This document shows, in pieces, positions 23,150-49,583 of a stretch of 64,000 nt of DNA (within the stretch, counting starts at the first letter, position 1; each line of letters opens with the position of its first letter). The notes under the pieces are model-generated. The model saw nothing but the letters and a program-made list of their open reading frames with translations, had not been told where the DNA came from and ran no database searches. Source of the DNA: a bacterium. Its GTDB lineage: Bacteria; Patescibacteriota; Minisyncoccia; Phycocordibacterales; UBA12088. The stretch lies in the NCBI GenBank assembly GCA_003252295.1, contig QKEV01000002.1, positions 196 through 64,195 of the forward strand, read 5' to 3'. The position numbers and the translations under genes are program-made.

Positions 23150-23183
23150 ACACCCTTGTCGAACCAACTCTATCTCGGCGCAC
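23150..23183 (+). repeat. degenerate tRNA-Tyr 3'-end-like repeat (att-like boundary)
   Basis: ttgtcgaaccaactctatctcggcgcaca resembles GGTTCGAATCCCTCCCGGCGCAC; second copy at 23812..23845; T-arm-only copy at ~24779. Confidence 0.5.
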
Positions 23184-23264
23184 ATCTTGACAATACCCTG
23201 TTTATAGGGTATTGTTTTGTTGAATTGTACACTGTCGTTAACATCAACCTGGAGGAATATTTAA

Positions 23265-23738: not shown

Positions 23739-23811
23739 CTCTAACTTCGAAAGTTGATGAAATTTAAGACCGCATGGTTCGCCCAGCGGTCTTTTCTATA
23801 CAAAGCATTTT

Positions 23812-23845
23812 TGTTGAACAAACTCTATCTCGGCGCACTTTTGAA
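23812..23845 (+). repeat. degenerate tRNA-Tyr 3'-end-like repeat, copy 2
   Basis: ttgttgaacaaactctatctcggcgcactt. Confidence 0.5.
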
Positions 23846-23856
23846 AATAGCAAATA

Positions 23857-24750
23857 CTACGGTATAGATATTTGACGTTTTTCTATAAACGTCAACGTAC
23901 ACTCGTCTCCATCTTCATACGAATTAGAATCATACACTCCATATTCAAGTGTATGATCATCCAACCACTCAAAGTCGTATGCCCCAGCATATGAACATGG
24001 TGACTGAACTGTCTCATGTACCCCTAAAGTCTCTTCTTTAACCACCGCATCAAGATATACATCTACAATGTATACAGTTTCAAGGTAACCATCACCACTT
24101 TCAACCTCATCTAGTTTTGCAATATACTGACCGGTAATTGATTGTACCTCACCACAAGAGGCACAGTAACCGTATTTATTTTCTTTTAGTTGCAACGTGT
24201 CGAATTCAAACCTCGCTATCCCGCAACACGCACTAGAACCAGGTATAGATGTAGTAAAAAACAAACTGTTACCATCCTTGTACATGTTGGGGTAGCTAAG
24301 CTTTTTCTTCGGATCAAACTGAGACTGGTATAAAGCCGTTAGGTCATCTATGACCATTTGCTGTTGTTGAGAATTTCCATCTACACTTCTCAACCTGTAG
24401 CAAAACTGCTCATAAGAACGCCCAAACGCATCATGGTCTGCACAAACATAGCTTTCAATGTATACATTACCAGAAGTTGAGTAAAATATTTCCCTCACCT
24501 CTCCAACAGTTCCAGTACTTACTTGTTGCTCCTCATTCAAAATAGGTTCAGGTTCAGGTTCAACCTCCACAATCTTCTCTACCTCCACCACCTTCTCAGG
24601 TGCATACGTATACCCAATCCAACCACCAATGAACGGCAGTGCAATAAACAACACCATTGCGAGAAGCTTTGATAGAAGAGTTACTTCGGTAAATACATTT
24701 GTTTTTGCAACTTGTTTAACTGCTTCAGGTTGAGGACTTCCCTGTTCCAT
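23857..24750 (-). CDS. membrane-anchored extracellular hypothetical protein (island gene 3)
   Basis: N-terminal TM LLAMVLFIALPFIGGWIGY then PEPEP linker and Cys-containing ectodomain. Confidence 0.45.
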   Translation of the reverse strand: MEQGSPQPEAVKQVAKTNVFTEVTLLSKLLAMVLFIALPFIGGWIGYTYAPEKVVEVEKIVEVEPEPEPILNEEQQVSTGTVGEVREIFYSTSGNVYIESYVCADHDAFGRSYEQFCYRLRSVDGNSQQQQMVIDDLTALYQSQFDPKKKLSYPNMYKDGNSLFFTTSIPGSSACCGIARFEFDTLQLKENKYGYCASCGEVQSITGQYIAKLDEVESGDGYLETVYIVDVYLDAVVKEETLGVHETVQSPCSYAGAYDFEWLDDHTLEYGVYDSNSYEDGDECTLTFIEKRQISIP

Positions 24751-24910
24751 AGTATGTAAATCATATCACGCCACACCATTGTCGAACCAACTCCCTTCTA
24801 GTACATAAATCACCAACCACTTTACAAACATTATTTTTATTGTATTTTAAACGGTAGTTTTTTGTACCAAACAAATACGTTCTATACAACTTGAACCAAG
24901 GAGGTTCCAA

Positions 24911-25150
24911 ATGCCTGAAACAACATTGCCTGCTATTCACAACGCACTCAAGAAAACTGTGAGCGATGGATTAGAGACTATCCTTGAAATTGAAGGATTG
25001 AGGTGGTCACCAAGAGGATTCATCACTTGGTACCACAGTGATACATCTGAAGCGGTTAGAATGTCAGTCATAAATGAAAGTGGGGAGAGAATTATCTATA
25101 CCTTCTCAGCAACCACTGTCCTCGGTGTAGGTATTGTAGATAAAAAATAG
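24911..25150 (+). CDS. hypothetical protein
   Basis: ORF with RBS aaggagg. Confidence 0.35.
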   Translation: MPETTLPAIHNALKKTVSDGLETILEIEGLRWSPRGFITWYHSDTSEAVRMSVINESGERIIYTFSATTVLGVGIVDKK

Positions 25151-25168
25151 TTACATACAACAACTATT

Positions 25169-25987
25169 TTGGAGGTTACAGCAATGATACTTTCATTAGT
25201 TTTTGCAGCTGGTTTGAGCTTTTCTGGTGTACAGTTTGAAACAGCAAAGTTACATGACGGAGAAGTTCCAGAGCCAAAAGTGAAGGATCCAATGTACTAC
25301 ATCTGCGCAGTTGAGAACATTGCCCCTCGTCATTTTCTAAAGTGGGGATACATTGAACCAGTTGAGAAAAGAGTAGAGGTTCAAGAGCACACACTCGTTA
25401 ACCCAGACAAGCAAGCAAGGGTAAAAGAGATCATCACCTCAACGCCGTACAATTACCAAAACCCCGATTACCCAAATGAGATGTATCGCACATACATTAA
25501 ATACAGGTTTGAGGTTGATGGCATGAAGTGTGGTTTTGAAGCAGTATACATACCTGCAAAGTATAATGAGTGGGCTTTTAAGGTTCATGGTGGTGGACTC
25601 ATGCCGATAAGATACCTGCCACAGAAACAAAGCGACCCTGTATACAACACATGTGTTGAGGGTAACATCCTCCCAAAAGATTTTCTACAGTGGGGAGACG
25701 TTACACCAACCCGTGATGCATCTGGAATACAAAAGCAAGTGCTCACGAACCCAGATTCAAACGCTAAAGTGGTACACATAACCACCTCAACACCTTTTGA
25801 GTATCAGCCAAACGATCTCAAACTGTGGGAGCAAGATCTGTACCTCACTCGCACTACGTATACCTTTAGTGTAAACGGTACAAAGTGCGGATTTGAAGCA
25901 ATCTACCTACCAAAGGAGTACTGTGAGTGGGACGGTGTACCATTCCGTGATGAGCTCATAAAGCTCATATACATACCTCAACAGTAA
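25169..25987 (+). CDS. secreted hypothetical protein with two ~130-aa internal repeats
   Basis: Signal peptide; repeat HFLKWGYIEPV...GMKCGFEAVYIPAKYNEW vs DFLQWGDVTPT...GTKCGFEAIYLPKEYCEW; terminator accgcccag-N7-ctgggcggt. Confidence 0.5.
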   Translation: MEVTAMILSLVFAAGLSFSGVQFETAKLHDGEVPEPKVKDPMYYICAVENIAPRHFLKWGYIEPVEKRVEVQEHTLVNPDKQARVKEIITSTPYNYQNPDYPNEMYRTYIKYRFEVDGMKCGFEAVYIPAKYNEWAFKVHGGGLMPIRYLPQKQSDPVYNTCVEGNILPKDFLQWGDVTPTRDASGIQKQVLTNPDSNAKVVHITTSTPFEYQPNDLKLWEQDLYLTRTTYTFSVNGTKCGFEAIYLPKEYCEWDGVPFRDELIKLIYIPQQ

Positions 25988-26112
25988 CTATCGTTCTTCT
26001 CGCACCTTACCGCCCAGACCAACTGGGCGGTAATTCTTTACAACACCCAACACTATGCTATCTTCGGGATAGAACACAAACCATCGTCAAAACAAGAAAC
26101 GGAGGATTGAAA

Positions 26113-26679
26113 ATGAAAAAGGATAAAATTCTGGAAAATCGTAAGGCAATTCTTGATTTACTGAAACAAGATCCTGATATAAAGCATACTGCTCTTGTTG
26201 ACGTGTTTCAGGTCTTGGTTGATGGCAATTTTTCTGAGACTGAAGATCCTCAGGAAAAAGGCGAAGAATTCCTCGCTAAAATGTCTGGTATCCACCAGGC
26301 ACTGCATACGGTAAATATGCACCTGTACAACATGAAGAAGCAACTGGAAGCTCAATGCACGGAAGAAGAGTTAATGAGTGGAAACCTGCCACCTGAAATA
26401 ATGCAAGGTATCACTAAGGCATTCAGGGCACAATTATTCATACTTGCACTTTCCGACCACCTCGTGACCGAACAACACGAACATGAATTTCTCAGTGAGC
26501 CAGGAATGAATATAGAGTACAGAAAAGGAGATGTGATTACTATTTCTATGCTCTCTCTGGCAGAGGCTTTCACCAGAGCCATCATACTTAACGAGGATGG
26601 TATCCATCAAGAGCAAGAAAATACAGTATTGGACGATCTACTCACAGGCATTAGCCTAACTAGGACAGGAAACGCATAA
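26113..26679 (+). CDS. hypothetical protein (ORF-track uses TTG at 26107)
   Basis: ORF, RBS ggagga. Confidence 0.4.
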   Translation: MKKDKILENRKAILDLLKQDPDIKHTALVDVFQVLVDGNFSETEDPQEKGEEFLAKMSGIHQALHTVNMHLYNMKKQLEAQCTEEELMSGNLPPEIMQGITKAFRAQLFILALSDHLVTEQHEHEFLSEPGMNIEYRKGDVITISMLSLAEAFTRAIILNEDGIHQEQENTVLDDLLTGISLTRTGNA

Positions 26680-26809
26680 CAGTTCGTTACAGCAAATTGA
26701 TTGCCCCATGTATCAACATGGGGCAATTTCTATTTGACCCTTCCCTTGAGACATGGTACATAGTAGTACTAGAACGTACGTAAAACATAAACTTCTTGGG
26801 GGAGATACT

Positions 26810-27310
26810 ATGGAGCTACGTGAAGCGCAAAGAATCGTTTCGTTGTTTTGGAACACATCTGAACTCGCGAAACTACTTGCTGAAAACGCAAGGTTGCGAA
26901 AAATCTTTGACCATATCTGTAACAAAGAACCATTTCTTGAAGAATCACCGCGTGGTAGCGGACGGATACCGATTTGTAGAGAACTGCAACAGTACTATGA
27001 AGAGTTTGCTGAAACGTGTATAAAAAAGTTTACTGAAAATAGAGGGGGGACAATGTATATCTCAGAAGCACGGAAACTTATCGCACCATACCTTGCTAAC
27101 CCGGCAATAATAAAAGCTATCCGCACAAACTTGCATCCTGCACTCACAAGATCCCACAATGCCATTATTGAGGAATTGGTGCAGATCTACGGAAAACCAG
27201 AAAGCAGAGACGAAAAACCAATCAGTGTAAAACTTACGAAAAACTACAACTTGTTCAAATACACTTCTGATTTGTTCCTTGATAGAGCCACTGGAGCACA
27301 CATACATTAG
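26810..27310 (+). CDS. hypothetical protein (ORF-track start 26753)
   Basis: ORF; terminator aacccgccac-tctc-gtggcgggtt ATTTGTTTTT at 27338-27372. Confidence 0.4.
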   Translation: MELREAQRIVSLFWNTSELAKLLAENARLRKIFDHICNKEPFLEESPRGSGRIPICRELQQYYEEFAETCIKKFTENRGGTMYISEARKLIAPYLANPAIIKAIRTNLHPALTRSHNAIIEELVQIYGKPESRDEKPISVKLTKNYNLFKYTSDLFLDRATGAHIH

Positions 27311-35028: not shown

Positions 35029-38000
35029 CTACTCAGTTTGAGAAGTTGTTGAATGTTCAGCAATCACTTTTTGATCGCTAGGTATAAGTCGCTTGAGTGC
35101 CCTTCCAAACTTGCTATCAATACCAACAAAATCTGTTAATGCCTTGATACCACCACCGCCAAGCAGGAGACTCAGGCCACCATCATGCTGAGGAAGCTTT
35201 TCTGCAAGCACCTTCATGAGTTCAGATTCGGAAACTGCCTCCAACGCAGCAATAAGCTGCGGCTGCAATGCAGAAAGACGATCTTTGTCTGCTCCAGCCA
35301 ACGCTGTAGCAATGGCAATTTCAATCTTTGATAACGCTTCCTTTTGTTGTGCCACCTGCGCGTCACTTGCTGTAGTAATCTTAAGGGTATTTTCAGCATC
35401 TGCGGCTCGCTGCTTACGTGCTGCTTCAGCAAGTACATCTTGATGTGCTTGTTCTTTTTTAGCACGATCATGGTCAGCTTTCTGTGCATCATCGTTCAAC
35501 TTATGAGATAACTGTAACGCTGTGCTTCTTGTAACATGATCACTCTGTTCCCTCGTAAGAGCAAGTTCAGTTTTTCGAACAACTTCAGCTGTATCAAGCA
35601 TCGCTTTCTCTTCAGCAATACCTGCACGCAACTTATCTGAATCAAGTTGTGCTTGTGCTGCTACATCGCCGATCTTCAAGGTGGCAATCGTCCGGTTGGC
35701 ATCTTCTAGCTGACTTGCAATATGAACATCAGGAATTTTGTACGTAAGTACCTCAACCTCATCGATCATCATATCGTTGTCAGCAAATAGCATGCCAGGT
35801 CTGGGATTATCACCTTCTTTTGGACCTAATACAGTATCACGAATTACTTCGGTCATTGATGGATACAACTCATGCAACGTCATAGTGCGCGCTTTTGCTC
35901 GCAACACACTGCGTATATGTTGCACCATAACCGCAATATAATTTTTGTGCGTAAACCAGTTAATCTTTTGAAGATCGTTATTACCAACAAAGTGTAACCC
36001 GAAGGAAAGATCAACTACAATACTTACAAAATCCTTCGTTTCCAAGTTAACCTGATCAGTAATACGATTTCCCTTCATCCTTAAAAAACAAGTTTCCAGG
36101 TGACCATCATCTGACTTGGGACGACCGGTTGAAAGTTCCAGTCTTTCCAGCACCTCATCATGCTTGAGAAGCACTGTCTCCGGACCAACAACACAGCGTT
36201 GCCCTCTTCGTCCAGTAATAAGAATGGCCTTATTTGATGGTACAGGTATTGATACTGCCCACGGTGTCACAACACCATCTTGTAGTTGTGACACTTTTTT
36301 GTGTGGCTCATTTTCACCAACCCATAAATTCCAGTTAGCACCAGAGATTGACCTTTTATAGTGACGCTGTCTGCGCGGGTCAATCAGTACAGCTTTCGGA
36401 CCAGAGACCAACTGAACTTCACCGCTCTGCATGTCCTCTACATAAACACCTGACTTCCCGTCCACCGGTATTGCAGTAACAAAAACTGTTGTGTGATCAT
36501 TACCAATATGCGGCTTGTTTGTCGTCGGGTCGATAATGTCAAATGATGCCTGCGGTACAATATATGCCTGCACCCCATGCACAAAGAGCTCATCACCCTT
36601 CGAATACAGACTTTTTTCTTCAACACCTTTTACCCCAACAGGCAACAAGGTCTCAAGGTCATCCCTGTTGATGGAAGTAGCTGTAATACGAAGCAACAAA
36701 CCACTTTCCAAAGTCATGTGGTATGCATCGTACACTCGATTGCGAGAACCTTCCTCACGAAAACGATCATACGGACCAGGGAAAACCCTCCCTGGACCGG
36801 CAACCGGCTGTGGTTGACCTTCTTCATTCAGGAGTACACAGAATTCTGCCGGACTCAACACAACCGCCTGACGAACAACATTGATTTTTACATCTCTTGG
36901 CGGTATTTTTTTTATGGCACCGGCACGTTCAGGTTTACTTACACCATACCGGGACATAAAGAGCTCCATCTCATTACGTTTCAACACCTCAAACAGTGCT
37001 TCTCGTAGAGCTCTGGTTGTGTTTCCGTACTTATCATACTTACTTCGGTAGGTACGCATCACTTCGCTATACTTCCGATACAGGTCAGCGTTCTCCAGAG
37101 CATCATCGAGTGTACGAGATGTAATATCTTCATTGTCTATCAACCTGGTAAGTCTATCCTTGAAAAAACCATCTACATACTCCTCCTCATCTGTGGTTGA
37201 ACCATCATCACCAGAAAGTGTATCTGATGCCTCTTGCACAACCTCTGTACCAGTTGGTGGTATAAAGGTCTGGGTTTTGCTACCAGGTATAATCACCAAC
37301 TCACCGGGACGAAAATGATACGGTCCACTACTCCCAATTCCGGCACCACCCTTTTCCAAACTATCAATATCCGTTGAACCTGTACCAGCTTGACCGGGTA
37401 CATTACCTGGTCCGCCATCAGTACCGCCCTCCCCGGTTTTTTCATCAGAAGGAGGTGATTCTTGATCTCCTTCTTCTGTTTCCGTTTCGCCAGGTCCTGT
37501 TTTTTTGCCAGCATTGACATCCTTTGCATCATCAACAACAGCTGCCTTGATCTGGGCACAAGCAACGAGTAACGAGTAGTACGGTGCCTGCACATCAACA
37601 TCCTCTGGTGATACAACCTTGACCAACAAGTACTGGTTTGAACCAAGTACATGGACATCACGTACTTCGATTTCCTGATGTGGCCAAAGTGGAAAATGTC
37701 CACGGGCAACAACAGACATCTTACCAAACTTAAGATCAATAAGTTCCTGTTTCCCAGCACGCCAAGTACCATTAGGAAAGTTGTCACTCACTCCACCAGC
37801 AGCAGGGTTCTTAATTACCGCATACTGCTGTGGTCCAAGTGTAACAAACGGCTGAATAGCTGAAGATAAATCAGTTTCATCAGCAACTTCCAACCGTGTC
37901 CCATCGTCATTATTTGGCAAGAGTGGTTTATCATCACCAGTCAGCTTATCCAAGGGGTCTGGTCCAAAAAATATACCCAGTTTCCCTTGTTTCGTATCCA

Positions 38001-38043
38001 TCGTCCACAGAACTTCATTTGGTCCCAGCGCTCTTTTGCTCAT
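35029..38043 (-). CDS. major vault protein (MVP) homolog, 1004 aa
   Basis: LERLELSTGRPK...DFVSIVVDLSFGLHF matches eukaryotic MVP shoulder motif (FTVLSLSAGRPK...LQLQLAYNWHF); N-terminal MVP-repeat motif HFPLWPHQEIE (cf. PFPLYPGEVLE); C-terminal Ala/Gln/Lys-rich cap-helix coiled coil; Gly/Thr/Asp-rich disordered insertion. Confidence 0.8.
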   Translation of the reverse strand: MSKRALGPNEVLWTMDTKQGKLGIFFGPDPLDKLTGDDKPLLPNNDDGTRLEVADETDLSSAIQPFVTLGPQQYAVIKNPAAGGVSDNFPNGTWRAGKQELIDLKFGKMSVVARGHFPLWPHQEIEVRDVHVLGSNQYLLVKVVSPEDVDVQAPYYSLLVACAQIKAAVVDDAKDVNAGKKTGPGETETEEGDQESPPSDEKTGEGGTDGGPGNVPGQAGTGSTDIDSLEKGGAGIGSSGPYHFRPGELVIIPGSKTQTFIPPTGTEVVQEASDTLSGDDGSTTDEEEYVDGFFKDRLTRLIDNEDITSRTLDDALENADLYRKYSEVMRTYRSKYDKYGNTTRALREALFEVLKRNEMELFMSRYGVSKPERAGAIKKIPPRDVKINVVRQAVVLSPAEFCVLLNEEGQPQPVAGPGRVFPGPYDRFREEGSRNRVYDAYHMTLESGLLLRITATSINRDDLETLLPVGVKGVEEKSLYSKGDELFVHGVQAYIVPQASFDIIDPTTNKPHIGNDHTTVFVTAIPVDGKSGVYVEDMQSGEVQLVSGPKAVLIDPRRQRHYKRSISGANWNLWVGENEPHKKVSQLQDGVVTPWAVSIPVPSNKAILITGRRGQRCVVGPETVLLKHDEVLERLELSTGRPKSDDGHLETCFLRMKGNRITDQVNLETKDFVSIVVDLSFGLHFVGNNDLQKINWFTHKNYIAVMVQHIRSVLRAKARTMTLHELYPSMTEVIRDTVLGPKEGDNPRPGMLFADNDMMIDEVEVLTYKIPDVHIASQLEDANRTIATLKIGDVAAQAQLDSDKLRAGIAEEKAMLDTAEVVRKTELALTREQSDHVTRSTALQLSHKLNDDAQKADHDRAKKEQAHQDVLAEAARKQRAADAENTLKITTASDAQVAQQKEALSKIEIAIATALAGADKDRLSALQPQLIAALEAVSESELMKVLAEKLPQHDGGLSLLLGGGGIKALTDFVGIDSKFGRALKRLIPSDQKVIAEHSTTSQTE

Positions 38044-39353: not shown

Positions 39354-39426
39354 CCGCCCATAGCTCAGCTGGTAGAGCAGTCGCCTCTTAAGCGAACGGT
39401 CCTAGGTTCGAGTCCTAGTGGGCGGA
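39354..39426 (+). tRNA. tRNA-Lys(CUU) (one G-A mismatch at top of anticodon stem)
   Basis: CCGCCCA/TGGGCGG acceptor, D-arm GCTCAGCTGGTAGAGC, anticodon loop CTCTTAA, T-arm CTAGGTTCGAGTCCTAG. Confidence 0.75.
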
Positions 39427-39564
39427 CTAAAAACACTTACGTCCCGATGCGATGAGCATTGGGGCGTTAGTGCTTTTCAGACCACTAGGGCTCGAAAGGG
39501 TTACCTGATATTTTGCAACTGAAAGGTGTAAAAATATCGGAAACCCATACTGTTCTGTAAGAAA
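39427..39564 (+). mobile_element. family-C insert between tRNA-Lys and its partial duplicate
   Basis: Unique 138-bp sequence followed by partial tRNA copy. Confidence 0.45.
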
Positions 39565-39579
39565 GAGTCCTAGTGGGTG
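39565..39579 (+). repeat. partial duplicate of tRNA-Lys 3' end (att-like)
   Basis: gagtcctagtgggtg vs tRNA cgagtcctagtgggcgg; followed by terminator aaaagcacc-ttaata-ggtgctttt. Confidence 0.65.
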
Positions 39580-39622
39580 AACAAGGAGATAAAAGCACCT
39601 ATTAAGGTGCTTTTATTATTTT

Positions 39623-39922
39623 TTAAAGATTGATTGGTGTGATCTCTTTTGGAATATCAGAGCTACTAACACCAATTGTACGCAAACCTATTTCGAGTAT
39701 TGCATATACTGATACCATAATAGTCATTCCTATGAGACCGTACATGATATGCCGCTTTCCATCGGCACGTTTAGATTCATCACCAGCATTTAAAATAAAT
39801 ACCATGAGACCATACATCATGTAAAGCAATGCACCTGCAAAGATGATTGCAATAATAGGATTTATGATCTCAGTAGTTACCTTTTCTACAAAAACCTTAA
39901 CCTCATCTGGAACTGGTTGCAT
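39623..39922 (-). CDS. TrbC/VirB2-like two-TM pilin-family mini-protein, paralog 1 (ORF-track start 40117 rejected)
   Basis: IIAIIFAGALLYMMYGLMVFILNAGDESKRADGKRHIMYGLIGMTIMVSVYAILEI shares F-x-AGD-x5-GK-x4-WG-x-IGL consensus with five upstream paralogs. Confidence 0.55.
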   Translation of the reverse strand: MQPVPDEVKVFVEKVTTEIINPIIAIIFAGALLYMMYGLMVFILNAGDESKRADGKRHIMYGLIGMTIMVSVYAILEIGLRTIGVSSSDIPKEITPINL

Positions 39923-39963
39923 GTTCTCATTACTATATAGCCATACTTTTTTTACAGCAATAG

Positions 39964-40012
39964 ACACTATACACAAAATGCGACAGATAATGTCGCATTT
40001 TGTGTATAGTGT
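39964..40012. promoter_or_regulatory. 22-bp perfect inverted repeat with 5-nt spacer between pilin paralogs 2 and 1
   Basis: acactatacacaaaatgcgaca-gataa-tgtcgcattttgtgtatagtgt. Confidence 0.7.
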
Positions 40013-40032
40013 TGTAAAAACAATTACTACGC

Positions 40033-40386
40033 CTACGGTGTTGGACCAGTTGGGAAAGTTGTTTGCGTTGATGCTGTAACACCAAATATGTTCTGCATAA
40101 CTGCAATAATTCCCCAAATAGAAACAATACAGAACAATGCAACTACACCCCAGATCATTCTCCTCTTTCCTTCATCTTTCGCACCCTCGTCTCCAGAAGC
40201 TAAGATGAACTGCGCAAGTCCCCAAATGAACACAAGCAGTGCAAGTGAGACAGCTATTGGGATCAATGCATTAACAATCTTACCAAGAGATGTAACGATA
40301 TTGGTGAACCATGCAAAATTTTGCGCAAGAGCAATCCCTGGAAGAAGAACACTTAGTGAAGGTAACACCTTTAAAGCTTTTTTCAT
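40033..40386 (-). CDS. TrbC/VirB2-like pilin-family mini-protein, paralog 2 (signal peptide)
   Basis: MKKALKVLPSLSVLLPGIALA signal; LVFIWGLAQFILASGDEGAKDEGKRRMIWGVVALF. Confidence 0.55.
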   Translation of the reverse strand: MKKALKVLPSLSVLLPGIALAQNFAWFTNIVTSLGKIVNALIPIAVSLALLVFIWGLAQFILASGDEGAKDEGKRRMIWGVVALFCIVSIWGIIAVMQNIFGVTASTQTTFPTGPTP

Positions 40387-40482
40387 ATAAACTATTTATA
40401 AATATTCTAATAATATGTTCAATATCACTACTGAAAGCATAGCACATTCGCCGCAATTTTAGCACTACACGTGTGGATAATG

Positions 40483-40848
40483 CTACCAAGTAATGATTGG
40501 TGTAGGGTGATCATTACTTGATGGTTGAGATACCCCGATTATATTCATGAGCAATCCAACAATACCCCACACGCTTATCAAAACGACTAAACCAATAAGT
40601 CCCCAAAAAATCCTCTTCTTTCCCTCCTCACGTGCTTTTGCTTGTTCAGTGTCAGTAAGCCCCATACCATAAAGCATACGAACCACTCCCCAGAGAAAGA
40701 CTAGTAGGCTTGCACTTATGAGAATACGTACCAGCATACCCATAATACTGGCACTGAAAAGACTGTCGATAATACTCCCAACAGTTTGAGCATGTGTACT
40801 GAAGGGTACCAAAAGAAAAAGGAATAATACTGTAAACCTGTATATCAT
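40483..40848 (-). CDS. TrbC/VirB2-like pilin-family mini-protein, paralog 3 (signal peptide)
   Basis: LLVFLWGVVRMLYGMGLTDTEQAKAREEGKKRIFWGLIGLVV. Confidence 0.55.
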   Translation of the reverse strand: MIYRFTVLFLFLLVPFSTHAQTVGSIIDSLFSASIMGMLVRILISASLLVFLWGVVRMLYGMGLTDTEQAKAREEGKKRIFWGLIGLVVLISVWGIVGLLMNIIGVSQPSSNDHPTPIITW

Positions 40849-41150
40849 GTAAAAAATGTATTCTTTAAGATTTCAATCAAACCCCAAATTGCAACCATCA
40901 CAAAGAGTGATATGGTTCCCCATATCATTAGTTGTTTACCCTGCTCCCTACTTTGATCATCACCTGCTGTTGTAATAAAGCGCACAAGACCAAAAAGAAA
41001 GAATATAAAGGCGAAAGCCGTAACGATATATACAAACTTATTTATCAACTCAACAACCCCTGCAGCAAAATTCTTGAAGGACTGCCCATATACAACTACT
41101 GGCAGCAACACAAGAAAAAAAAATAATGTACATTGTTTGACCTTAATCAT
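40845..41150 (-). CDS. TrbC/VirB2-like pilin-family mini-protein, paralog 4 (signal peptide)
   Basis: IFFLFGLVRFITTAGDDQSREQGKQLMIWGTISLFV; 4-bp overlap with paralog 3. Confidence 0.55.
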   Translation of the reverse strand: MIKVKQCTLFFFLVLLPVVVYGQSFKNFAAGVVELINKFVYIVTAFAFIFFLFGLVRFITTAGDDQSREQGKQLMIWGTISLFVMVAIWGLIEILKNTFFT

Positions 41151-41157
41151 ACTTGTA

Positions 41158-41439
41158 TTACGGTTTTAATGATGTAACTGTCGCACTTATCATGATTGAA
41201 AATGCTTGTGCACCAAGAATTATCAGAGCACCTATTACAGCCCATACGAGCGCTGAACGTGCTTTTTGAATTTTCTGTGGATTTCCCTGTGCAGTCACAA
41301 ACAAAAAACCTGTATAGATGATCACTAAAACCACAATGGGAAATAAAACATACACAACAACCGTAAGGATGGTCGCTAAAAGCTCCTGTAATGTTGTACC
41401 GGCAAATGGATTTAAAAATTGACTCGCTGTATTAGGCAT
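41158..41439 (-). CDS. pilin-family mini-protein, paralog 5 (subfamily with AQGNPQK loop)
   Basis: VLVIIYTGFLFVTAQGNPQKIQKARSALVWAVIGALIIL. Confidence 0.5.
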   Translation of the reverse strand: MPNTASQFLNPFAGTTLQELLATILTVVVYVLFPIVVLVIIYTGFLFVTAQGNPQKIQKARSALVWAVIGALIILGAQAFSIMISATVTSLKP

Positions 41440-41472
41440 ACGTATATATTAGCACACACCCCACTATAAATA

Positions 41473-41748
41473 TTATATTAAATTCTTAGCTGTCGAATCT
41501 ATCATTTGAGCAATTGCAAATGCAGCAAGCACTATCACTGCACCTATAGTGGTCCACAATAATGAACGTTTTGCATCATCAAGCTTCTGTGGGTTTCCTT
41601 GTGCGGCAACAAACAGGTAACCTGTATAAATCATCATGAGTACCAAAAATGGAAAAAGTATGTACGTAAGCGTAGAAAGTATCGTATAAAGAAACACTTT
41701 CAAATCAGCATACTTTATAGGATTTGTGAAAGCGTATGCAATTTTCAT
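41473..41748 (-). CDS. pilin-family mini-protein, paralog 6 (AQGNPQK subfamily)
   Basis: VLMMIYTGYLFVAAQGNPQKLDDAKRSLLWTTIGAVIVL. Confidence 0.5.
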   Translation of the reverse strand: MKIAYAFTNPIKYADLKVFLYTILSTLTYILFPFLVLMMIYTGYLFVAAQGNPQKLDDAKRSLLWTTIGAVIVLAAFAIAQMIDSTAKNLI

Positions 41749-41766
41749 AAAACTTATCTAAATTTA

Positions 41767-43089
41767 CTATTTATTATATTGCTCAAGTAAAGCGTTTAAA
41801 TCTAAATTTAACACATTTAAGCTTGCTGTTGGTGTTACTGAACCTGCAACAACATCATTGATAGCTGATTCAAATAATGTATCTACAGATGAATTTGGTG
41901 CTGGTTCCAGCCATGTATGTGACATGATAGCAGACTGTTGCTTCACTTTACTATATGGATCAACTGGATCAATAGTTGAAAGTAGGTCAAGGCGAACTGA
42001 AGGTAGTCCTGTTAACTCAGAAACCTCTGCTACTGAAGCCGCCGTTGCAAGTTTTGCAGCAATGTAATTAGCATACGACGGATGTGCACTGTTCTTAAGG
42101 ATGGCAATACCGTAAAAATTACCGTAGGTAAGACTTGTGTTTGTGTTGTTCGACTGCGGAAGTATTGCGATACTAAAATTTAAATTAGGGTTTATCTCTG
42201 TAAGAGTAGTTTCCTCACTTGCAAAACCAACATACATCGCAACCTTATCTGCAGCAAACGCCTCTCGAGAACGGTCAAACGTTTTATTCCATGAGTACAC
42301 CTTTTTAACTGGATTAGAAAATGAGGTATAGAAAGTCATCGCTGCACTAGTATTCGAGCTTTGTGAAGCAATATCAGAAACAAAATTATTATTACCAGCA
42401 TCTTGTTCAACCACATCTGCACCAGTTTGCATGAAAAGTGCACTTACTATTTCCTTAGCATGAAGTACATTATCGTACTCACCAAACGCAACAGCACTTT
42501 GTACCAACTCTGAACCTCCAGTAATTTTTGATAATCTTGGTGTCATGTCAACAAACGTATCCCAATCACTAGGTGGTTGTGCTATTGCTTCATTGGTAAA
42601 TATATTTCTGTTCCAAAACATAACAAGAGGATCCACAAGAAACGGTCGTGCATAGATACCATCAGAAAGTACAAAAACATTAGCGCCTTCTATCCACGTC
42701 TCAGAGAATGAACTCATTGGTAACGTCTCGAAACTTAATGGAAGTATTTTATTTTTAAGTGCAAGCAGATCAGTTGAACTTAAAATTACCAGATCAGGAC
42801 TATTTCCTGATGCGATCGATTCAAGAATATCGCTATACATAGTATCTGGGTGTTTCTCTACGTAGGTAATATCAAGATATGCCCCATTATCTTCTTCTTT
42901 TGCAAATGTACTAAGTACCTCATTTATTGCCCTATTTTTAAATGGTGGTCCCCAAATAACAATAGGGTATGTTTCTGTACCACCTCCATTGTCGTACTTA
43001 AAAAATGCCAAGTATAAAACTCCCCCTACGGCCATTACACCAAAAAGTATCAAGAGAAATATTTGAAAAAAGGTCTGTTGTTGTTCCAT
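41767..43089 (-). CDS. membrane-anchored extracellular solute-binding protein, family 1 (MalE-like), no adjacent permease/ATPase
   Basis: N-terminal TM; IVIWGPP, GNSPDLVILSSTDL, LVMFWNRNIF, PPSDWDTF, KVAMYVG parallel MalE landmarks. Confidence 0.65.
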   Translation of the reverse strand: MEQQQTFFQIFLLILFGVMAVGGVLYLAFFKYDNGGGTETYPIVIWGPPFKNRAINEVLSTFAKEEDNGAYLDITYVEKHPDTMYSDILESIASGNSPDLVILSSTDLLALKNKILPLSFETLPMSSFSETWIEGANVFVLSDGIYARPFLVDPLVMFWNRNIFTNEAIAQPPSDWDTFVDMTPRLSKITGGSELVQSAVAFGEYDNVLHAKEIVSALFMQTGADVVEQDAGNNNFVSDIASQSSNTSAAMTFYTSFSNPVKKVYSWNKTFDRSREAFAADKVAMYVGFASEETTLTEINPNLNFSIAILPQSNNTNTSLTYGNFYGIAILKNSAHPSYANYIAAKLATAASVAEVSELTGLPSVRLDLLSTIDPVDPYSKVKQQSAIMSHTWLEPAPNSSVDTLFESAINDVVAGSVTPTASLNVLNLDLNALLEQYNK

Positions 43090-43091
43090 AA

Positions 43092-43619
43092 CTATTTTCT
43101 AAAAATCAAACCGTAATGATACGCACCAGCATCAATGTCTTGCATATGCTCAAAGCCACAATTTTTTGCAATACTACGTACATCCTCCTCACGAAGAACA
43201 TGTTCCGGTTGTGGTCCTACACCTCCAAATGACTCTTTCCAATCAACTACAAGCAATCGTCCATCCTTTTTAAGTATCCTATGTGCTTCAAGCAAAACTG
43301 CATTTTTATCCTCCACCTGAAAGAGCATATTTGAAACCACAACAGCGTCCACACTCTCATCAGGTAACCCTGAACCATTTTCTCGTTCTAGATCTGCGTG
43401 AATAAAAGAAATAGAACCAAGATGATGTTCTTTTGCAAAATGTGTCGCTTTTGTTAATAATTCCTGTTGTATATCTATCACATACACCTTCCCATCCTTA
43501 CCAACTACTTCAGCAACCTCAACAGCAAGATATCCTGCACCAGCACCAAAGTCTGCCACCTGCATACCTGCATCTAGTCCAAACTGTTCAATATTACGCT
43601 TAGGGTTAGTGAATGACAT
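43092..43619 (-). CDS. class I SAM-dependent methyltransferase
   Basis: VADFGAGAGYLAVEVAE (motif I), KVYVIDIQQELL (motif II), VVVSNMLFQ. Confidence 0.8.
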   Translation of the reverse strand: MSFTNPKRNIEQFGLDAGMQVADFGAGAGYLAVEVAEVVGKDGKVYVIDIQQELLTKATHFAKEHHLGSISFIHADLERENGSGLPDESVDAVVVSNMLFQVEDKNAVLLEAHRILKKDGRLLVVDWKESFGGVGPQPEHVLREEDVRSIAKNCGFEHMQDIDAGAYHYGLIFRK

Positions 43620-43697
43620 TGTCCATAGTATTGTAACAATAAAACACCCATAAGGGGTGTTTTATTGTGTATATAACTAATGATATAAGTTGGTGGA

Positions 43698-46181
43698 CTA
43701 GAGACAAATGATGGCAGCTATCGAATCTCCTGAGCGCAATTTCATGATCCGTACCCCTTGCGTTGAACGTCCCATACCTGGGATCTCTTTAACATCAGTT
43801 CGTATCACCTGCCCTTTCTTTGATATAACAACCAACTCTTCACTTTCAGTATTTAAAATCCTGCTTGCCATTAACTTGCCAGTCTTTGTGGTGACATTGG
43901 TACACTTTATTCCTGAACCACCACGTTTTTGTATCTTAAATTCCTTGAGTGCTGTCTGTTTGCCATACCCCTTCTCAGAAACCACAAGGAGAGATAAGCT
44001 ACTTTCTTTGTCTGCTTTTGAACGCATACTCGCACTCACTACTACATCACCTGTGCTAAGCTTCATACCACGTACACCAACAGCTGCTCGTCCCATCTCT
44101 CGAACATCATTCTCCTTAAAGCGAATAGATTGACCCTTGAGTGTAGTAAGTAGTACCTCATCTCCCTTACTCACGAAACCAGCCTGTATAAGCTTATCTC
44201 CTGGTGCAAGCTTGATGGCGATAATGCCTGACATGCGCACATCATGGAAATCTTTTGCTTTTGTTTTTTTAATGATACCACCCTTTGTAACCATCATAAG
44301 AGAACCATCACTGTCTTTGAGATCCTTAGTGAGTGCTACCACCGACGTAATCTCTTCACCCTCAATGAGTGGAAGGAAGTTCATAATAGACTTACCTTTT
44401 GTGGCACGTCTACCTTCGGGAACCTCATACATCTTTATTTGGTACACCTTACCTTTATCACTAAAGAATAGGAGATCATCATGCGTACTTGCAGTTAAGA
44501 ACAAGCGAACAAAATCCTCGTCTTTTGTATTTAGATCAACAACACCAACACCGCCACGTTTTTGACGTTTGTATTCGCTCGGATTAGTGCGCTTTATGTA
44601 CCCACCTTTTGTGATGACGAGCACACTCTCCTCCTCAGCTATCAAATCCTCAGGGGTCATGTTCTTTACAGCACCCTTTATCACCTTAGTACGTCGTTCA
44701 TCACCATACTTTTCCTGAATCTCGACAAGTTCTTTCTTGATGAGTGTTGCCATTTTCTTTGGACTCTTAAGTATCCCTTTGAGCCATGCAATAAGTGCCT
44801 GTACCTCCTTGAGCTCATCCTCGATCTTCTTACGTTCAAGTCCTGCGAGTTTCTGCAAACGCATTTCAAGTATGGCAGTTGCCTGTATATCACTAAACTT
44901 AAACTTCTTCATCAACGCTTCCTTTGCAGATGGTACATCCTTAGATTTCTTGATGATTCGGATAATCTCATCAATATGATCAAGTGCCTTCTTAAGACCA
45001 AGAAGAATATGTTCACGTGCCTCTGCTTTCTTGAGATCATATTCACAACGTCTTCGAACAACCTCTTTTCGATATGCAACAAACTCATCAAGAACACCTT
45101 TGAGTGAAAGTGTCTGTGGTACACCATCAACAAGTGCAACAAGATTCAAATGGAAGGTATCTTCGAGTTGTGTGTGTTTGTAGAGGTAGTTCAAAACCTT
45201 TTGTGGCTGTGCAGTATTCTTGAGATCAACAACAACACGAATATCTGTTGTTGACTCATCACGAATATCTTTGATTCCATCGATCTTCTTCTGTTGATGT
45301 AGCGCGGCAACACGTTTTATGAGTTCTGCTTTATTTACACGATATGGCAATGAGGTAATGAGTATAGAAAATGCCCCCTTCTTGTTCTCAACAATCTCTG
45401 CCTCACCTCGTACGACCATTCCTCCTTTACCAGTAGCATACGCATGACGTATATCCTTTTGGTTAAAAATGACTGCTCCAGTAGGAAAATCTGGTGCTTT
45501 AATGAAATCAAATACTTCTTCCTGTGAAGCATCAGGGTTATCTATGAGATGTATTACAGCATCCACTACTTCACTGAGGTTGTGTGGTGGAATGTTTGTT
45601 GCCATACCTACCGCAATACCCAAAGTTCCATTCAAAAGCAGGTTTGGCACTGCTGCAGGAAGTACTGTCGGTTCATTTCGTGTCTCATCATAGTTTGGTC
45701 TCCAATCAACAGTCTCTTTTTCAATATCACGAAGCATTTCAGCAGAAACCTTGGTCATTTTTGCCTCTGTGTAACGCATTGCAGCAGGACTGTCACCATC
45801 AATAGAACCAAAGTTACCTTGTCCGAGTACGAGCGGATATCGGGTGGTAAACTCCTGCGCAAGCTTTACGAGAGCATCGTATACTGCTGTATCACCATGC
45901 GGATGATACTTACCAAGTACATCTCCGACAACAGCTGCTGACTTACGAAACTTTGCTCCAGAATGAAGACCCATTTTGTGCATCGTGTAGAGGATTCTCC
46001 TATGCACTGGCTTTAGACCATCGCGAACATCTGGAAGTGCACGCTGTGTAATAACTGACATGGCATAAGCGAGGTACGACTCACGCATCTCACTACTGAT
46101 CGGACATGCAATGACAGAATCAACAGCCTTTACTTCACCACTTTCTTCTTGTGGTGTTTTCTTTTTTCGCTCTTTCGCCAT
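43698..46181 (-). CDS. gyrA: DNA gyrase subunit A
   Basis: [27 protein letters not shown], active-site region AAMRYTE; C-terminal beta-pinwheel repeats. Confidence 0.95.
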
Positions 46182-47312: not shown

Positions 47313-47526
47313 ACACGTGTGAGTATACCACGTAATCGTTAATTTGAAATTTTTAATTTACAATTTTTATTTTTAAATTTTTTATTGCAAATTCAACATA
47401 TTTGCTGTAGAGTTGTCTCATTACTAGCTGCCCTCATAAGGAGGGTTCGCTTGAAGGCTAACATTGCAATGTTGTTCGGATATGGTTGCAACACATGCAA
47501 AACCTTCGGCGATTTTTGTGTTTAAT

Positions 47527-48639
47527 ATGACAACAAATACAACAGAAGAAACAATAACGAATGAGGTAATGGCAACATTCCTTGAGCAGAGTCCACTTCC
47601 ACCACGTGAAGGTGATCTTGTTGAAGGACCAGTTGTTGCAATAGCAAAAAATAAGGTGTTTATCGAACTACATCCGTTTGGTACTGGTATCATTTACGGT
47701 CGTGAGTACATGACTGCAAGTGACATACTACGTCGAGTTCACCCAGGTGATACTATCGCCGCAAAAGTGGTAGATAATATAAACGAAGAAGGTTACATCG
47801 AGCTTTCACTTATGGAAGCACGTCAGGCTCTTATCTGGGCAGAAGCCGAGGAGGCAGTCAACAAGGGCACCGTCTTTGAAGTTGCTGTAAAAGAAGCAAA
47901 CAAGGGTGGTCTCATGATGGATTGGCAAGGTGTTACTGGTTTCTTACCAGCAAGTCAGCTCAAACCTGACCACTACCCACGTGTAGAGGATGGTGACCGA
48001 AGCAAGATCCTTGAAGAGCTCAAGCAGCTCATTGGACAGAAGCTTTCAGTTGTTATCATTACTGCAGATCCACAGGAGAACAAGCTCATCTTCTCAGAAC
48101 GAGGACCACAGGAGGAAAAGAGCGCTTCAGCAGAACGCTTTGCTGTTGGTGATGTTATTGAGGGTGAAGTAACCGGTGCAGTTGACTTTGGTATCTTCAT
48201 TAAGATTGATGAGGGACTTGAGGGACTCGTACATATCTCTGAAATAGACTGGGGTCTCGTAGAGAACCCTAAGACCATGTACAAGGTGGGTGAGAAGGTA
48301 AACGTAAAGGTTATTGAGGTAAAAGATGGAAAGGTTTCCCTCTCTATCAAGGCACTCAAGGAGAACCCATGGACCACTGCTTCTGAGAAGTACAAGAAGG
48401 GTCAGGAGGTAGAAGCTACCATCATCAAGTACAACAAACATGGTGCGCTTGCTTCTATCGAGGAAGGTGTTGCAGGACTCGTACACATCAGTGAGTTTGC
48501 GAGTGCTGAGGAGCTTCACAAGAGCCTTGAGCTCGGACGAAGCTACAAGTTCAGGATTACACTCTTTGAACCAGCAAACCAGCGTATGACACTCTCTTTC
48601 AAGCAAAAAGAAGGTGAGGATGCTAAAGAAGAAAAGTAA
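47527..48639 (+). CDS. rpsA: 30S ribosomal protein S1 (four S1 domains; ORF-track start 47464)
   Basis: Repeated S1 domains (GDLVEGPVVAIAKNKVFIEL; GDVIEGEVTGAVDFGIFIKI; GQEVEATIIKYNKHGALASI); terminator aaccgcc-gcaa-ggcggtt TTTT at 48641-48670. Confidence 0.85.
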   Translation: MTTNTTEETITNEVMATFLEQSPLPPREGDLVEGPVVAIAKNKVFIELHPFGTGIIYGREYMTASDILRRVHPGDTIAAKVVDNINEEGYIELSLMEARQALIWAEAEEAVNKGTVFEVAVKEANKGGLMMDWQGVTGFLPASQLKPDHYPRVEDGDRSKILEELKQLIGQKLSVVIITADPQENKLIFSERGPQEEKSASAERFAVGDVIEGEVTGAVDFGIFIKIDEGLEGLVHISEIDWGLVENPKTMYKVGEKVNVKVIEVKDGKVSLSIKALKENPWTTASEKYKKGQEVEATIIKYNKHGALASIEEGVAGLVHISEFASAEELHKSLELGRSYKFRITLFEPANQRMTLSFKQKEGEDAKEEK

Positions 48640-49058: not shown

Positions 49059-49192
49059 CTATTATTCTCCTTTGGAAAAAGACTGAAAACTACATTCATT
49101 ACCTTCCTATATTATACCATATTTAATATATTTGTCCAGTTTTATATAGTAGAAAAAGACTCGCTTTTACACGAGTCTTTTTCATATTTTTT

Positions 49193-49583
49193 CCTATATC
49201 TATAAGCCGGATTCTGTATCCCCCACCACTTTTGTTCGTGTACGAACAAAAGTGGTGGGGGACGATAGTTATTTACCTAGCTTTACAGTTACCTGTAAAG
49301 TCATGCGGCACTCCCCCCACCACTTTTACACGATATTCGTGTAAAAGTGGTGGGAGGCACGACCTTGCACGCAGGTAAGGATTTTGCCGTTTCACTCGCC
49401 ACGTTACCGTAGTGATTCATCCACTATGTGGATGTCTTTCCCTTTCGGTCTAGACGTCACTGCTCGCACCTCTATGCTTACACACGACGGGTGTTACCCG
49501 CTACCCTGCTCCCAAAAAATGGGGCGTGTCCGGACTTTCCTCACTGTATATAAAATACACAGCGCAACTATCCGATATAGACT
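49193..49583 (-). ncRNA. rnpB: RNase P RNA (bacterial type A)
   Basis: Minus strand carries GGAAAGTCCGGAC (P4 5' strand), CAGGGTAGCGGGTAACACCCG (cf. CAGGGUGCCAGGUAACGCCUGG), 3' ACAGAATCCGGCTTAT (P4 3' strand) and P1 pairing TCTATATC/GATATAGG; two near-identical long hairpins cccaccacttttgttcg...cgaacaaaagtggtggg. Confidence 0.75.

Follow-up and report, generated by a model that had tools for sequence, protein, structure and literature searches.

Organization of the locus

The stretch of DNA analyzed here (64,000 nucleotides of the 64,423-bp contig QKEV01000002.1, assembly GCA_003252295.1; referred to below as the window) originates from a member of the Patescibacteriota and carries, at positions 39623–43619, eight co-directional genes on the minus strand, all downstream of gyrA (43698–46181). 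The first two specify an S-adenosylmethionine (SAM)-dependent methyltransferase and a family-1 solute-binding protein (SBP), and the next six specify small pilin-like proteins, named P1 to P6 in the order of the genes (Table 1). The gene order in the window is gyrA–methyltransferase–SBP–pilins–tRNAs, and the remainder is occupied by housekeeping functions (ClpB, IF-2, GroEL, PBP2, a MurE-like protein, RelA, ParB, RNase P RNA and ten tRNAs). Pfam matches were determined for about 45 of the 49 listed open reading frames (ORFs) of at least 150 residues, a few nested or antisense ORFs being omitted; the S1-domain ORF at 47464–48639 was identified by its translation and by synteny rather than by Pfam.

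A first-pass annotation, made from the sequence alone, had described six tandem genes of 91–121 residues on one strand, directly preceded in the same orientation by a SAM methyltransferase and by an SBP without a transporter partner. The Pfam matches and the ORF scan agree with this description. The starts of the genes had also been described as overlapping or closely spaced, which is correct for the first part of the array only. The SBP gene and P1 are separated by 18 nt, P1 and P2 by 33 nt and P2 and P3 by 7 nt, and the stop codon of P3 overlaps the start of P4 by 4 nt (ATGA), but P5 and P6 are preceded by gaps of 96 and 110 nt, respectively. For P6 the ATG at 39922 was taken as the start, instead of the TTG at 40117 of the ORF listing (164 residues), because the first residue then aligns with the last-position orthologues of relatives; the TTG was disfavored because the longer ORF would overlap P5 and cross the 22-bp hairpin in the P5–P6 gap.

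Table 1. Genes and other features of the methyltransferase–SBP–pilin block (positions in the window).
Feature	Position	Strand	Properties
SAM methyltransferase, class I	43092..43619	-	175 aa; Pfam Methyltransf_31, 77 bits
Family-1 solute-binding protein (SBP_bac_8)	41767..43089	-	440 aa; 71.7 bits; N-terminal transmembrane helix
P1, class C pilin-like	41473..41748	-	91 aa; PF18895, 40.7 bits; FxNP motif, AQGNPQK loop, no signal peptide
P2, class C pilin-like	41158..41439	-	93 aa; PF18895, 37.9 bits
P3, class E (middle) pilin-like	40845..41150	-	101 aa; PF18895, 42.6 bits; leader end VYG|Q
P4, class E (middle) pilin-like	40483..40848	-	121 aa; PF18895, 33.0 bits; leader end THA|Q
P4–P5 intergenic gap	40387..40482	-	96 nt; contains TTATCCACA
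P5, class E (penultimate) pilin-like	40033..40386	-	117 aa; PF18895, 43.9 bits; leader end ALA|Q
Inverted repeat in the P5–P6 gap	39964..40012	-	perfect 22 bp, 5-nt loop, 100% complementary
P6, class E (last) pilin-like	39623..39922	-	99 aa; PF18895, 29.3 bits; INP motif, acidic N-tail, no signal peptide
Terminator-like hairpin at the end of the block	39589..39616	-	12-bp stem, 4-nt loop, 6 nt past the P6 stop

Family membership and fold of P1–P6

The six proteins had been likened to conjugative pilins of the TrbC/VirB2 type. In a search against the T4SS_pilin family of Pfam (PF18895; T4SS, type IV secretion system), 6 of 6 proteins scored above the gathering threshold of 26.6 bits (29.3–43.9 bits, with E-values from 1e-6 to 2.5e-11), and the same family was precomputed for the same proteins in the gene calls of an independent assembly. 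Judged by these profile scores, membership of PF18895 is far beyond chance. Proteins of such loci are already in public databases, some of them labeled 'Type IV secretion system pilin'.

The alignment of the six proteins displays the architecture that had been read from the individual sequences, namely an optional signal peptide and two long hydrophobic helices with a short charged loop between them, in a core of ∼70 residues. The loop is AQGNPQK in P1 and P2 and GD...GK in P3–P6. It is longer in P4, which also has a Pro/Ser-rich C-terminal tail, and the tail of P5 is rich in Thr and Pro. Sec-type leader-like segments of 20–22 residues, with small-x-small|Q ends, are present in P3–P5; P1, P2 and P6 have no leader and their reading frames are not extendable upstream. 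By the positive-inside rule, the subunits would adopt an N-out/C-out hairpin topology with the basic loop in the cytoplasm. The AlphaFold2 model of P5, built with 109 homologues, had a predicted local distance difference test (pLDDT) value of 81 and of ∼90 in the core; its helices (residues 5–20, 25–62 and 67–101) correspond to a signal helix followed by a two-helix hairpin. A natural double pilin (P0008), modeled from the single sequence, gave a model of only medium confidence (pLDDT 69), with four long helices and a disordered linker that contains an 8-residue helix. P1–P6 are members of PF18895 with a hairpin fold.

A lipobox, a neighboring sortase and a lack of profile similarity had been named beforehand as grounds for abandoning the pilin assignment, and none of the three was encountered. 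The leader ends of P3–P5 do not contain the lipobox [LVI][ASTVI][GAS]C (there is no Cys at +1). No LPXTG sorting signal was found on reading the six sequences; the tail of P5 (...TFPTGPTP) ends the protein and is not followed by a hydrophobic stretch or a basic tail. No sortase was matched among the scanned ORFs of the window. Lipoprotein and sortase-pilus readings were rejected for these reasons.

Four of the proteins (P1, P3, P5 and P6) were also scanned against NCBIfam and matched NF045849 over almost the entire length of that family, with 30–35 bits (35.1 bits for P1), below the cut-off of 40 bits. This is the Mbov_0395 family of Mycoplasma integrative and conjugative elements (ICEs), an 80-residue two-helix protein of a monoderm conjugation system, encoded by a single gene inside the ICE, unlike the chromosomal array described here. 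Although sub-threshold, the matches are consistent and link the PF18895 family to monoderm conjugation systems.

Paralogue classes and positional orthology

P1 and P2 are 48% identical to each other and 16–24% identical to the remaining four proteins, in accordance with the two subfamilies recognized in the first-pass annotation; apart from this pair, the identity between paralogues within the window is 16–35%. Clustering of 326 pilin domains yielded an array grammar of the form [A]-C-E×n. Class A, with a signal peptide and an extracellular segment containing Cys-x-Cys, occupies the first position of 38 arrays; neither the window nor its two closest relatives have a member of this class. Class C, with the FxNP motif and the AQGN loop, comprises P1 and P2, and class E comprises P3 to P6. 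The classes thus differ in fixed features: the presence or absence of a signal peptide, the Cys loop and the NP motifs. Average-linkage clustering did not split class E, and positional orthology inside this class is for that reason based on a best-hit matrix of 46 arrays, in which the best hits fell on the same position for 71% of first, 66% of second, 59% of penultimate and 72% of last genes; the middle genes resemble the penultimate type. Last-position genes share the INP motif and in none of 53 cases have an upstream hydrophobic segment or signal peptide. The best cross-locus matches of P1 are second-position genes, and P2 is a lineage-specific duplicate within the P1/P2 pair; class C orthologues of P2 number one in the closest relative (L002) and two in L003.

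The array is collinear, gene for gene, with the orthologues of L002, with identities of 34–58% (P3 52%, P4 34%, P5 50%, P6 56%), as compared to 84% for GyrA, 71% for the methyltransferase and 57% for the SBP. Arrays of relatives also contain fused polypeptides with two or three pilin domains, and some of the 28,248 family representatives retrieved in an exhaustive profile search have 2–7 domains. By the gene-fusion (Rosetta-stone) argument, domains that are covalently joined in this way should contact one another. The closer relationship of P3–P6 to their orthologues than to their paralogues, taken together with the positional classes and the fusions, points to an ancient heteromeric set rather than a variable expansion. 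By these comparisons the paralogues form an old, ordered set of distinct subunit classes with positional orthology.

The array had been suggested to be phase- or dosage-variable, and this suggestion was not borne out by the collinear orthologues or by the positional orthology over 46 arrays. Over this region the window and the independent assembly do not differ (100% identity). Within 39400–43700 the only A/T tract of at least 8 nt (or G/C tract of at least 6 nt) is a T9 homopolymer on the coding strand at 41115–41123, in the signal-peptide codons of P3, which has the same length in the independent assembly and shows no sign of slippage. No invertible, recombinogenic or switch-like repeats were found in the array, the hairpin being the sole repeat. 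Phase variation was rejected on these grounds.

Several unusual pilin-domain ORFs were noted in the relatives. Three middle-class pilins are fused in one ORF in L013 (7905–8942, plus strand) and in L070 (15082–16164, plus strand), and P0298 (606 residues), P0305 and P0313 consist of consecutive T4SS_pilin domains with Pro-rich linkers (2–7 domains per natural polypeptide). In L069, L060, L063, L074, L076, L078, L080 and L081 the first one to three genes after the SBP are large pilin-domain ORFs of about 280–570 residues. In the one at the first position of L069 (14383–15684, plus strand) the pilin domain is C-terminal (residues 354–416 of 434), and the N-terminal ∼350 residues, without Pfam match, could be an adhesin or tip domain.

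Conservation of the block and its coupling to the solute-binding protein

Eighty gyrA loci of Paceibacteria species were searched with the pilin hidden Markov model (HMM) and with the proteins of the window. By its GyrA sequence the window belongs to the Parcubacteria/Paceibacteria part of the Patescibacteria, and the closest genome is that of Parcubacteria bacterium GW2011_GWA2_43_11 (84% GyrA identity). The order metallo-β-lactamase (MBL)-fold protein, gyrA, methyltransferase (not always present), SBP and 4–9 pilin genes was found in about 60 of the 80 loci, down to a GyrA identity of 63%. About ten loci had neither the SBP nor the array, and the two were never found apart, contig ends excepted. 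In L040 and L055 the block is displaced from gyrA, yet the methyltransferase, SBP and pilin genes remain together. The methyltransferase is missing from 8 loci that retain the SBP and the array; elsewhere its gene is mostly located between gyrA and the SBP gene. In both L082 and L084 the genes of the methyltransferase and the SBP share 4 nt. Those of the SBP and the first pilin likewise share 4 nt in L084, and in L082 they are separated by 4 nt. The same layout was seen in contigs that had been fetched independently and for which Pfam calls were precomputed; in these the S1-to-ClpB neighborhood is syntenic with the window. The SBP and the array co-occur in an operon-like layout that is deeply conserved. 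The two upstream genes had been taken as mere neighbors of the array; their adjacency was read correctly, but the 80-locus scan makes them part of a conserved module with it. Since the S1-to-ClpB neighborhood is syntenic throughout the class, the adjacency may partly reflect inherited gene order.

The nearest solved relatives of the SBP are sugar-binding SBPs (E 1e-9). Of 117 orthologues, 114 have an N-terminal transmembrane (TM) helix that is uncleaved and in which the pattern FQ..LL..FG is conserved; a lipobox was found in none (0/117). The conservation of the TM anchor in sequence suggests that the SBP has a partner within the membrane. ABC permeases are the usual docking partners of family-1 SBPs. 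No ABC permease or ATPase (BPD_transp, ABC_tran) was present among the scanned ORFs of the window or in the annotated neighborhoods of four relatives. The methyltransferase has no specific family assignment: its matches in NCBIfam are UbiE/ArsM-like only and sub-threshold.

Orphan SBPs encoded together with conjugation genes, and without a permease of their own, are found on enterococcal conjugative plasmids (PrgZ of pCF10 and TraC of pAD1). PrgZ, which binds peptides and is of the OppA type (family 5), imports pheromone via the Opp permease of the host and is linked to regulation genes. The SBP described here is different in that it belongs to family 1, with sugar-type relatives, is TM-anchored and is tied to pilin genes.

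A few further observations concern the surveyed loci and the SBPs of the window. Many metagenome bins from third party annotation (TPA) entries titled 'uncultured Candidatus Saccharibacteria bacterium' (L003, L007, L011–L013 and others) have GyrA proteins 65–77% identical to that of the window and the gyrA–methyltransferase–SBP–pilin synteny of the Paceibacteria type; the titles are probably generic labels and not true class assignments. A second SBP (SBP_bac_5, 639 residues, 210 bits) is encoded at 59402–61321 (plus strand), also without an adjoining ABC permease or ATPase, and its flanks are HhH-GPD glycosylase-like. In L009 (16776–17984, minus strand) and 7 other loci a multi-TM protein of ∼400 residues is encoded directly after the array on the opposite strand. 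Its C-terminal 'ECESGGKHF...IGKYQI' is lytic-transglycosylase-like by eye, but no significant Pfam match was obtained. It is absent from the window, where a protein with SLT and LysM domains is encoded at 14480–15637.

Intergenic elements of the array

The gap before the penultimate gene is a conserved property of these arrays. Its median length is 102 nt, and of 54 arrays 89% have a gap of 40 nt or more at this position, versus medians of 4–11 nt for earlier positions (those represented by at least 9 arrays) and 17.5 nt after the penultimate gene. In the window the corresponding P4–P5 gap contains the 9-mer TTATCCACA, the DnaA-box consensus, on the sense strand at 40480..40472, 2 nt past the P4 stop; it is the sole exact copy in the 64 kb. 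Exact copies occur in the gap of 7 of 47 loci and copies with at most one mismatch in 22 of 47, where about 0.06 and 1.4, respectively, would be expected when calculated from the background rates and the lengths of the gaps. The enrichment is more than 100-fold for exact copies and about 16-fold with one mismatch allowed, and most copies lie no more than 30 nt past the stop of the preceding gene. The 9-mer is a candidate DnaA-box-like element.

In many loci TATAAT-like boxes were seen by eye about 35–45 nt downstream of the 9-mer. A scan with the sigma-70 consensus gave 22 promoter-like sites versus 20.8 in shuffled sequence, and 8.7 versus 8.5 of 12 for the gaps before the penultimate gene, i.e. 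no enrichment in either case. The argument for a promoter is for this reason based on the conserved gap, the 9-mer and the TATAAT-like boxes, from which the P4–P5 gap is probably an internal promoter or operator for P5.

The P5–P6 gap holds a perfect inverted repeat (Table 1), and its RNA has a minimum free energy (MFE) of −42 kcal/mol; the counterpart in L002 has an MFE of −32.7 kcal/mol over 101 nt. The hairpin, which is not followed by a T-run, is possibly an attenuator or an mRNA-stabilizing stem-loop. At the terminator-like, palindromic hairpin that closes the block, the T-rich run ATTTTTTAAA trails the plus-strand reading only, and the tail on the minus strand, which is that of the array, is CTCCTTGTTC. 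No known RNA family was found by Rfam inside the array.

P5 has the highest PF18895 score of the six proteins and also the highest score with the family HMM (148 bits). According to published data, T4SS_pilin genes are among the highest-expressed genes of unknown function in co-cultures of Paceibacterales (PMC10936435). The gap and 9-mer before P5, the hairpin after it, its top family score and the high expression of T4SS_pilin genes make it the best candidate for a major subunit, and it is probably expressed separately.

Relation to published PF18895 arrays

Tandem pilin-like genes are already known from Patescibacteria. In Southlakia epibionticum a predicted pilin series is located inside an essential T4SS locus, and the six PF18895 genes (SEML1_0014–0019) are each essential (Wang et al. 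2023, PMC10633639), which argues for non-redundant subunits. A survey reported 441 arrays of 2–11 VirB2-like genes in 383 assemblies, with a mean identity of 25% and a maximum of 54%, and proposed host-range versatility as the function of the arrays (Quinonero-Coronel et al. 2025, PMC12102498). In other Patescibacteria, PF18895 arrays adjoin VirB4/VirB6 genes (PMC10633639, PMC12102498, PMC12857230), and a review from 2025 considered the Patescibacterial systems unique among monoderms in their potential for conjugative pili (PMC12857230).

The survey defined an array as at least two pilin genes of low pairwise identity, in tandem or with one non-pilin gene between them (PMC12102498), and P1–P6, six consecutive genes that are 16–48% identical, form an array in this sense. 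The published description also includes a position in the T4SS locus or no more than about 20 genes from virB4, which was not observed for the scanned ORFs of the window or for the 10-kb flanks of the array in four relatives. The locus has in common with the S. epibionticum and surveyed arrays the Pfam family, the six small, divergent tandem genes, the chromosomal location, the monoderm host and the absence of a relaxase nearby. It differs in that the S. epibionticum array lies in a T4SS locus by VirB6-like genes, whereas the present array lies by gyrA, behind the methyltransferase and the TM-anchored SBP. Wang et al. 2023, Quinonero-Coronel et al. 2025 and the 2025 review do not mention gyrA, an SBP or a methyltransferase beside arrays, and neither positional classes nor a motif before the penultimate gene are mentioned in the cited papers on these arrays. 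The survey table appears to list PF18895-only matches only near virB4, so that the gyrA-linked, SBP-coupled locus is seemingly uncatalogued. Apparently undescribed are the strict coupling to an SBP, the location away from virB4, the division of the subunits into positional classes and the element resembling a DnaA box that precedes the gene of the probable major subunit.

Proposed function of the array

The explanation that we favor, with moderate confidence, is that the six proteins are specialized VirB2-like subunits that assemble together into a single heteromeric pilus or conduit, belonging to a T4SS encoded elsewhere in the genome, with P5 as the major subunit and the SBP as a surface partner. 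P1–P6 would be inserted in the cytoplasmic membrane as helical hairpins and would be specialized subunits that are not interchangeable: P1 and P2 belong to class C, and P3–P6 to class E (P3 and P4 middle, P5 penultimate, P6 last). They would form a short pilus or conduit of a monoderm-type Patescibacterial T4SS, the ATPase and channel genes of which would lie at another location. P5 would be the abundant subunit, with a promoter of its own in the conserved gap, and P1–P4 and P6, present in few copies, would serve as initiator, base or tip. The SBP would act at the surface beside the assembly, as a receptor for a ligand or the host surface or as a docking factor.

A number of observations weigh against this explanation, the first group of which concerns the distance to known conjugative pilins. 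The resemblance to VirB2/TrbC that had been proposed has some basis, as P1 nearly reaches the gathering score of TrbC (PF04956, 27.9 bits) with 26.6 bits (E 7e-6), but it is weaker than was implied. P2 scored 22.1 bits, also below the threshold, and P3–P6 did not match PF04956. Comparison by hhalign of alignments of 109 and of 6 sequences with 8 VirB2/TrbC proteins was not significant (probability about 1%), the signal-peptidase site (A-x-A|Q) being the sole part that aligned; the reference set, 8 annotated proteins fetched from plasmids of mating-pair formation type T (MPF-T), is narrow and alphaproteobacterial only, which makes this a weak negative. Neither the six-protein profile nor P1 retrieved a conjugative pilin when the PDB was searched by sequence; the only matches, to TM helices of cytochrome oxidase subunit 2 and of G-protein-coupled receptors, were dismissed as chance. 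With the P5 model as query, the highest-ranking pilin in Foldseek was the conjugation pilus of A. pernix (8dfu) at rank 47, with E 3.1, a target-normalized TM-score of 0.67 and a root-mean-square deviation of 3.7 Å.

The second group concerns the secretion machinery. As had been noted in the first-pass annotation, there is no secretion ATPase in the window: no VirB4/VirD4/DUF87-type ATPase, VirB6, PrgI or TrsD was found among the scanned ORFs. Likewise, in the four relatives whose gene calls have Pfam annotation, T4SS genes were absent up to a distance of 10 kb from the array, and the search downstream of arrays in relatives did not reveal a conserved T4SS-like gene. In the survey (PMC12102498), GW2011_GWA2_43_11, which carries the array, is listed without VirB4, VirB3, VirB6 and TrsD, and another array-bearing draft is without VirB4; for named relatives that bear the array, VirB4 is listed as absent from 2 and present in 2. 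For the two VirB4-positive Paceibacteria checked in the survey table, a separate, single PF18895 gene is listed two genes away from virB4 (PMC12102498), so the secretion machine may have its own pilin. Finally, a pilus of PF18895 proteins has not yet been observed in any organism (PMC12857230). The absence of VirB4 from draft metagenome-assembled genomes (MAGs) is weak evidence, because 618 of the 3,035 surveyed assemblies lacked a detected VirB4. The dependence of the array on a T4SS is put conditionally here, because the draft of the closest relative is among those reported without VirB4.

Comparison with better known systems indicates which properties the heteromeric T4SS assembly would share with them. 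Classical VirB2/TrbC/TraA pilins (PF04956; T-pilus and F-pilus) are also small, with two hydrophobic helices and a short basic loop, and the Sec-type leader of P3–P5 would be cut before Gln, as at the A-x-A|Q site of the VirB2 proteins fetched from plasmids. The classical pilins polymerize with phospholipid into an extracellular pilus, and some of them are cyclized head to tail. In place of the single pilin of the classical systems, the array encodes six different ones; their leaders are short or missing, and the host is without an outer membrane; the fetched plasmid loci have the order VirB1–VirB2–VirB3, whereas VirB1, VirB3 and VirB4 are not adjacent to the array. The archaeal Ced and Ted DNA-import systems also use VirB2-like hairpin pilins (CedA1, TedC), and these work with a monoderm-type (MPF-FATA-related) VirB4 machine but not for plasmid export (PMC9905601). 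They have single pilins and no SBP. The A. pernix pilus 8dfu is the best pilin match of P5, but the structural match is weak, as given by the rank and E-value above.

An alternative that we consider unlikely is that the methyltransferase–SBP–pilin block is self-contained and independent of VirB4, the pilin-like proteins forming a hetero-oligomeric pore, tube or scaffold in the membrane or at the surface that works directly with the SBP, for example in the capture and uptake of host-derived solutes. The inseparability of SBP and array, even away from gyrA (L040 and L055), and the overlap of their genes in L084 would follow directly, although the S1-to-ClpB synteny makes adjacency in part a matter of inherited order. 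An SBP with a conserved TM anchor and without a permease or ATPase would here find its membrane partner in the hairpins; family-1 SBPs normally use ABC permeases, however, and we know of no transporter built of VirB2-like hairpins. The module is unlinked to virB4 and occurs in drafts reported to be VirB4-less, and a single PF18895 gene belongs to the T4SS locus itself in both of the VirB4-positive Paceibacteria checked in the survey table; of these points, the absence from drafts carries little weight for the reason given above.

A broader version, which we regard as improbable, holds that the whole class possesses a VirB4-independent apparatus in which five to seven VirB2-like subunits form a tube or pore to which the SBP docks, with the major subunit tied to the cell cycle via the DnaA-box-like operator. 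If this were true, such an SBP-docked conduit would be a new route for taking material from host cells.

The two remaining explanations are both very improbable in our view. The paralogues could be equivalent major pilins, kept as alternatives for antigenic, host-range or dosage variation, a reading suggested by the authors of the survey (PMC12102498). The copy number of 4 to 9 per array among relatives, which varies mostly in middle class E, the divergence of pilins and SBP beyond that of GyrA (34–58% versus 84% identity for pilins and GyrA of the closest relative) and the variable C-terminal tails, rich in Pro, Ser and Thr, are in keeping with it. Equivalent subunits would, however, not be expected to display positional orthology over deep divergence, fixed class features, covalent multi-domain fusions and, in S. 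epibionticum, individual essentiality of all six genes (PMC10633639), nor does the array contain switch elements or recombinogenic repeats, and its only homopolymer is the single T9 tract. Tandem virB2 genes of Anaplasma, Bartonella and Rickettsia, likewise divergent VirB2-type genes in a row in host-dependent bacteria, are thought to give antigenic or host-surface variation (PMC12102498); the array described here differs in its position-specific orthologous classes, which are kept across a bacterial class. The proteins could also be small membrane proteins with a role in membrane organization, or stator- or insertase-like accessories, for which the name pilin is over-interpreted: the similarity to classical VirB2/TrbC is marginal or absent, Foldseek cannot separate the hairpin from many other helical hairpins, P1, P2 and P6 lack signal peptides and an SPFH/Band_7 gene (here the major vault protein-like gene) is a frequent neighbor, but PF18895 genes are embedded in T4SS loci of other classes and essential there, the proteins have similarity to the pilin-like conjugation protein of Mycoplasma ICEs, and very high expression, as published for T4SS_pilin genes (PMC10936435), is typical of structural subunits.

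A large part of bacterial diversity belongs to the Patescibacteria, which live in attachment to other microbes and of which the Paceibacteria are the largest class. The array is relevant to the question of how these organisms draw on the resources of their hosts, as T4SS genes and arrays are essential in the one species tested. For the Paceibacteria, the data describe a deeply conserved, ordered set of subunits, permanently coupled to an orphan TM-anchored SBP and set apart from the secretion motor. The working question thereby moves from variable copies of an adhesin to which heteromeric structure the subunits build and what the SBP binds.

Other features of the window

The protein encoded by the 1004-residue ORF at 35029–38043 (minus strand) is truly homologous to the eukaryotic major vault protein (MVP). 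MVP_shoulder (66 bits) and Vault_3 (35.6 bits) of Pfam exceed their cut-offs; Vault_4, with 23.1 bits, narrowly exceeds its cut-off of 22.9 bits, although none of its stretches passes alone. Residues 393–934 were aligned by phmmer to residues 273–810 of the MVP of solved vaults (E 1e-16). The protein has a long acidic, Gly-rich insert near residues 170–300, and relatives have a Band_7/SPFH gene at the same position.

A block of six ORFs at 21962–27310 (157–377 residues) is without Pfam match. One of these (25169–25987) has an internal duplication, with two repeats of ∼110 residues carrying the motifs 'TSTP..YQ' and 'KCGFEA.Y.P', and another (23857–24750) has an N-terminal TM anchor. The cumulative GC skew drops monotonically over the window, indicating that the replication origin or terminus is not inside it. 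ParB (HTH_ParB, ParB_N and ParB_C) is encoded at 11465–12784 (minus strand), and bacterial RNase P RNA class A at 49187–49583 (minus strand, 125 bits).

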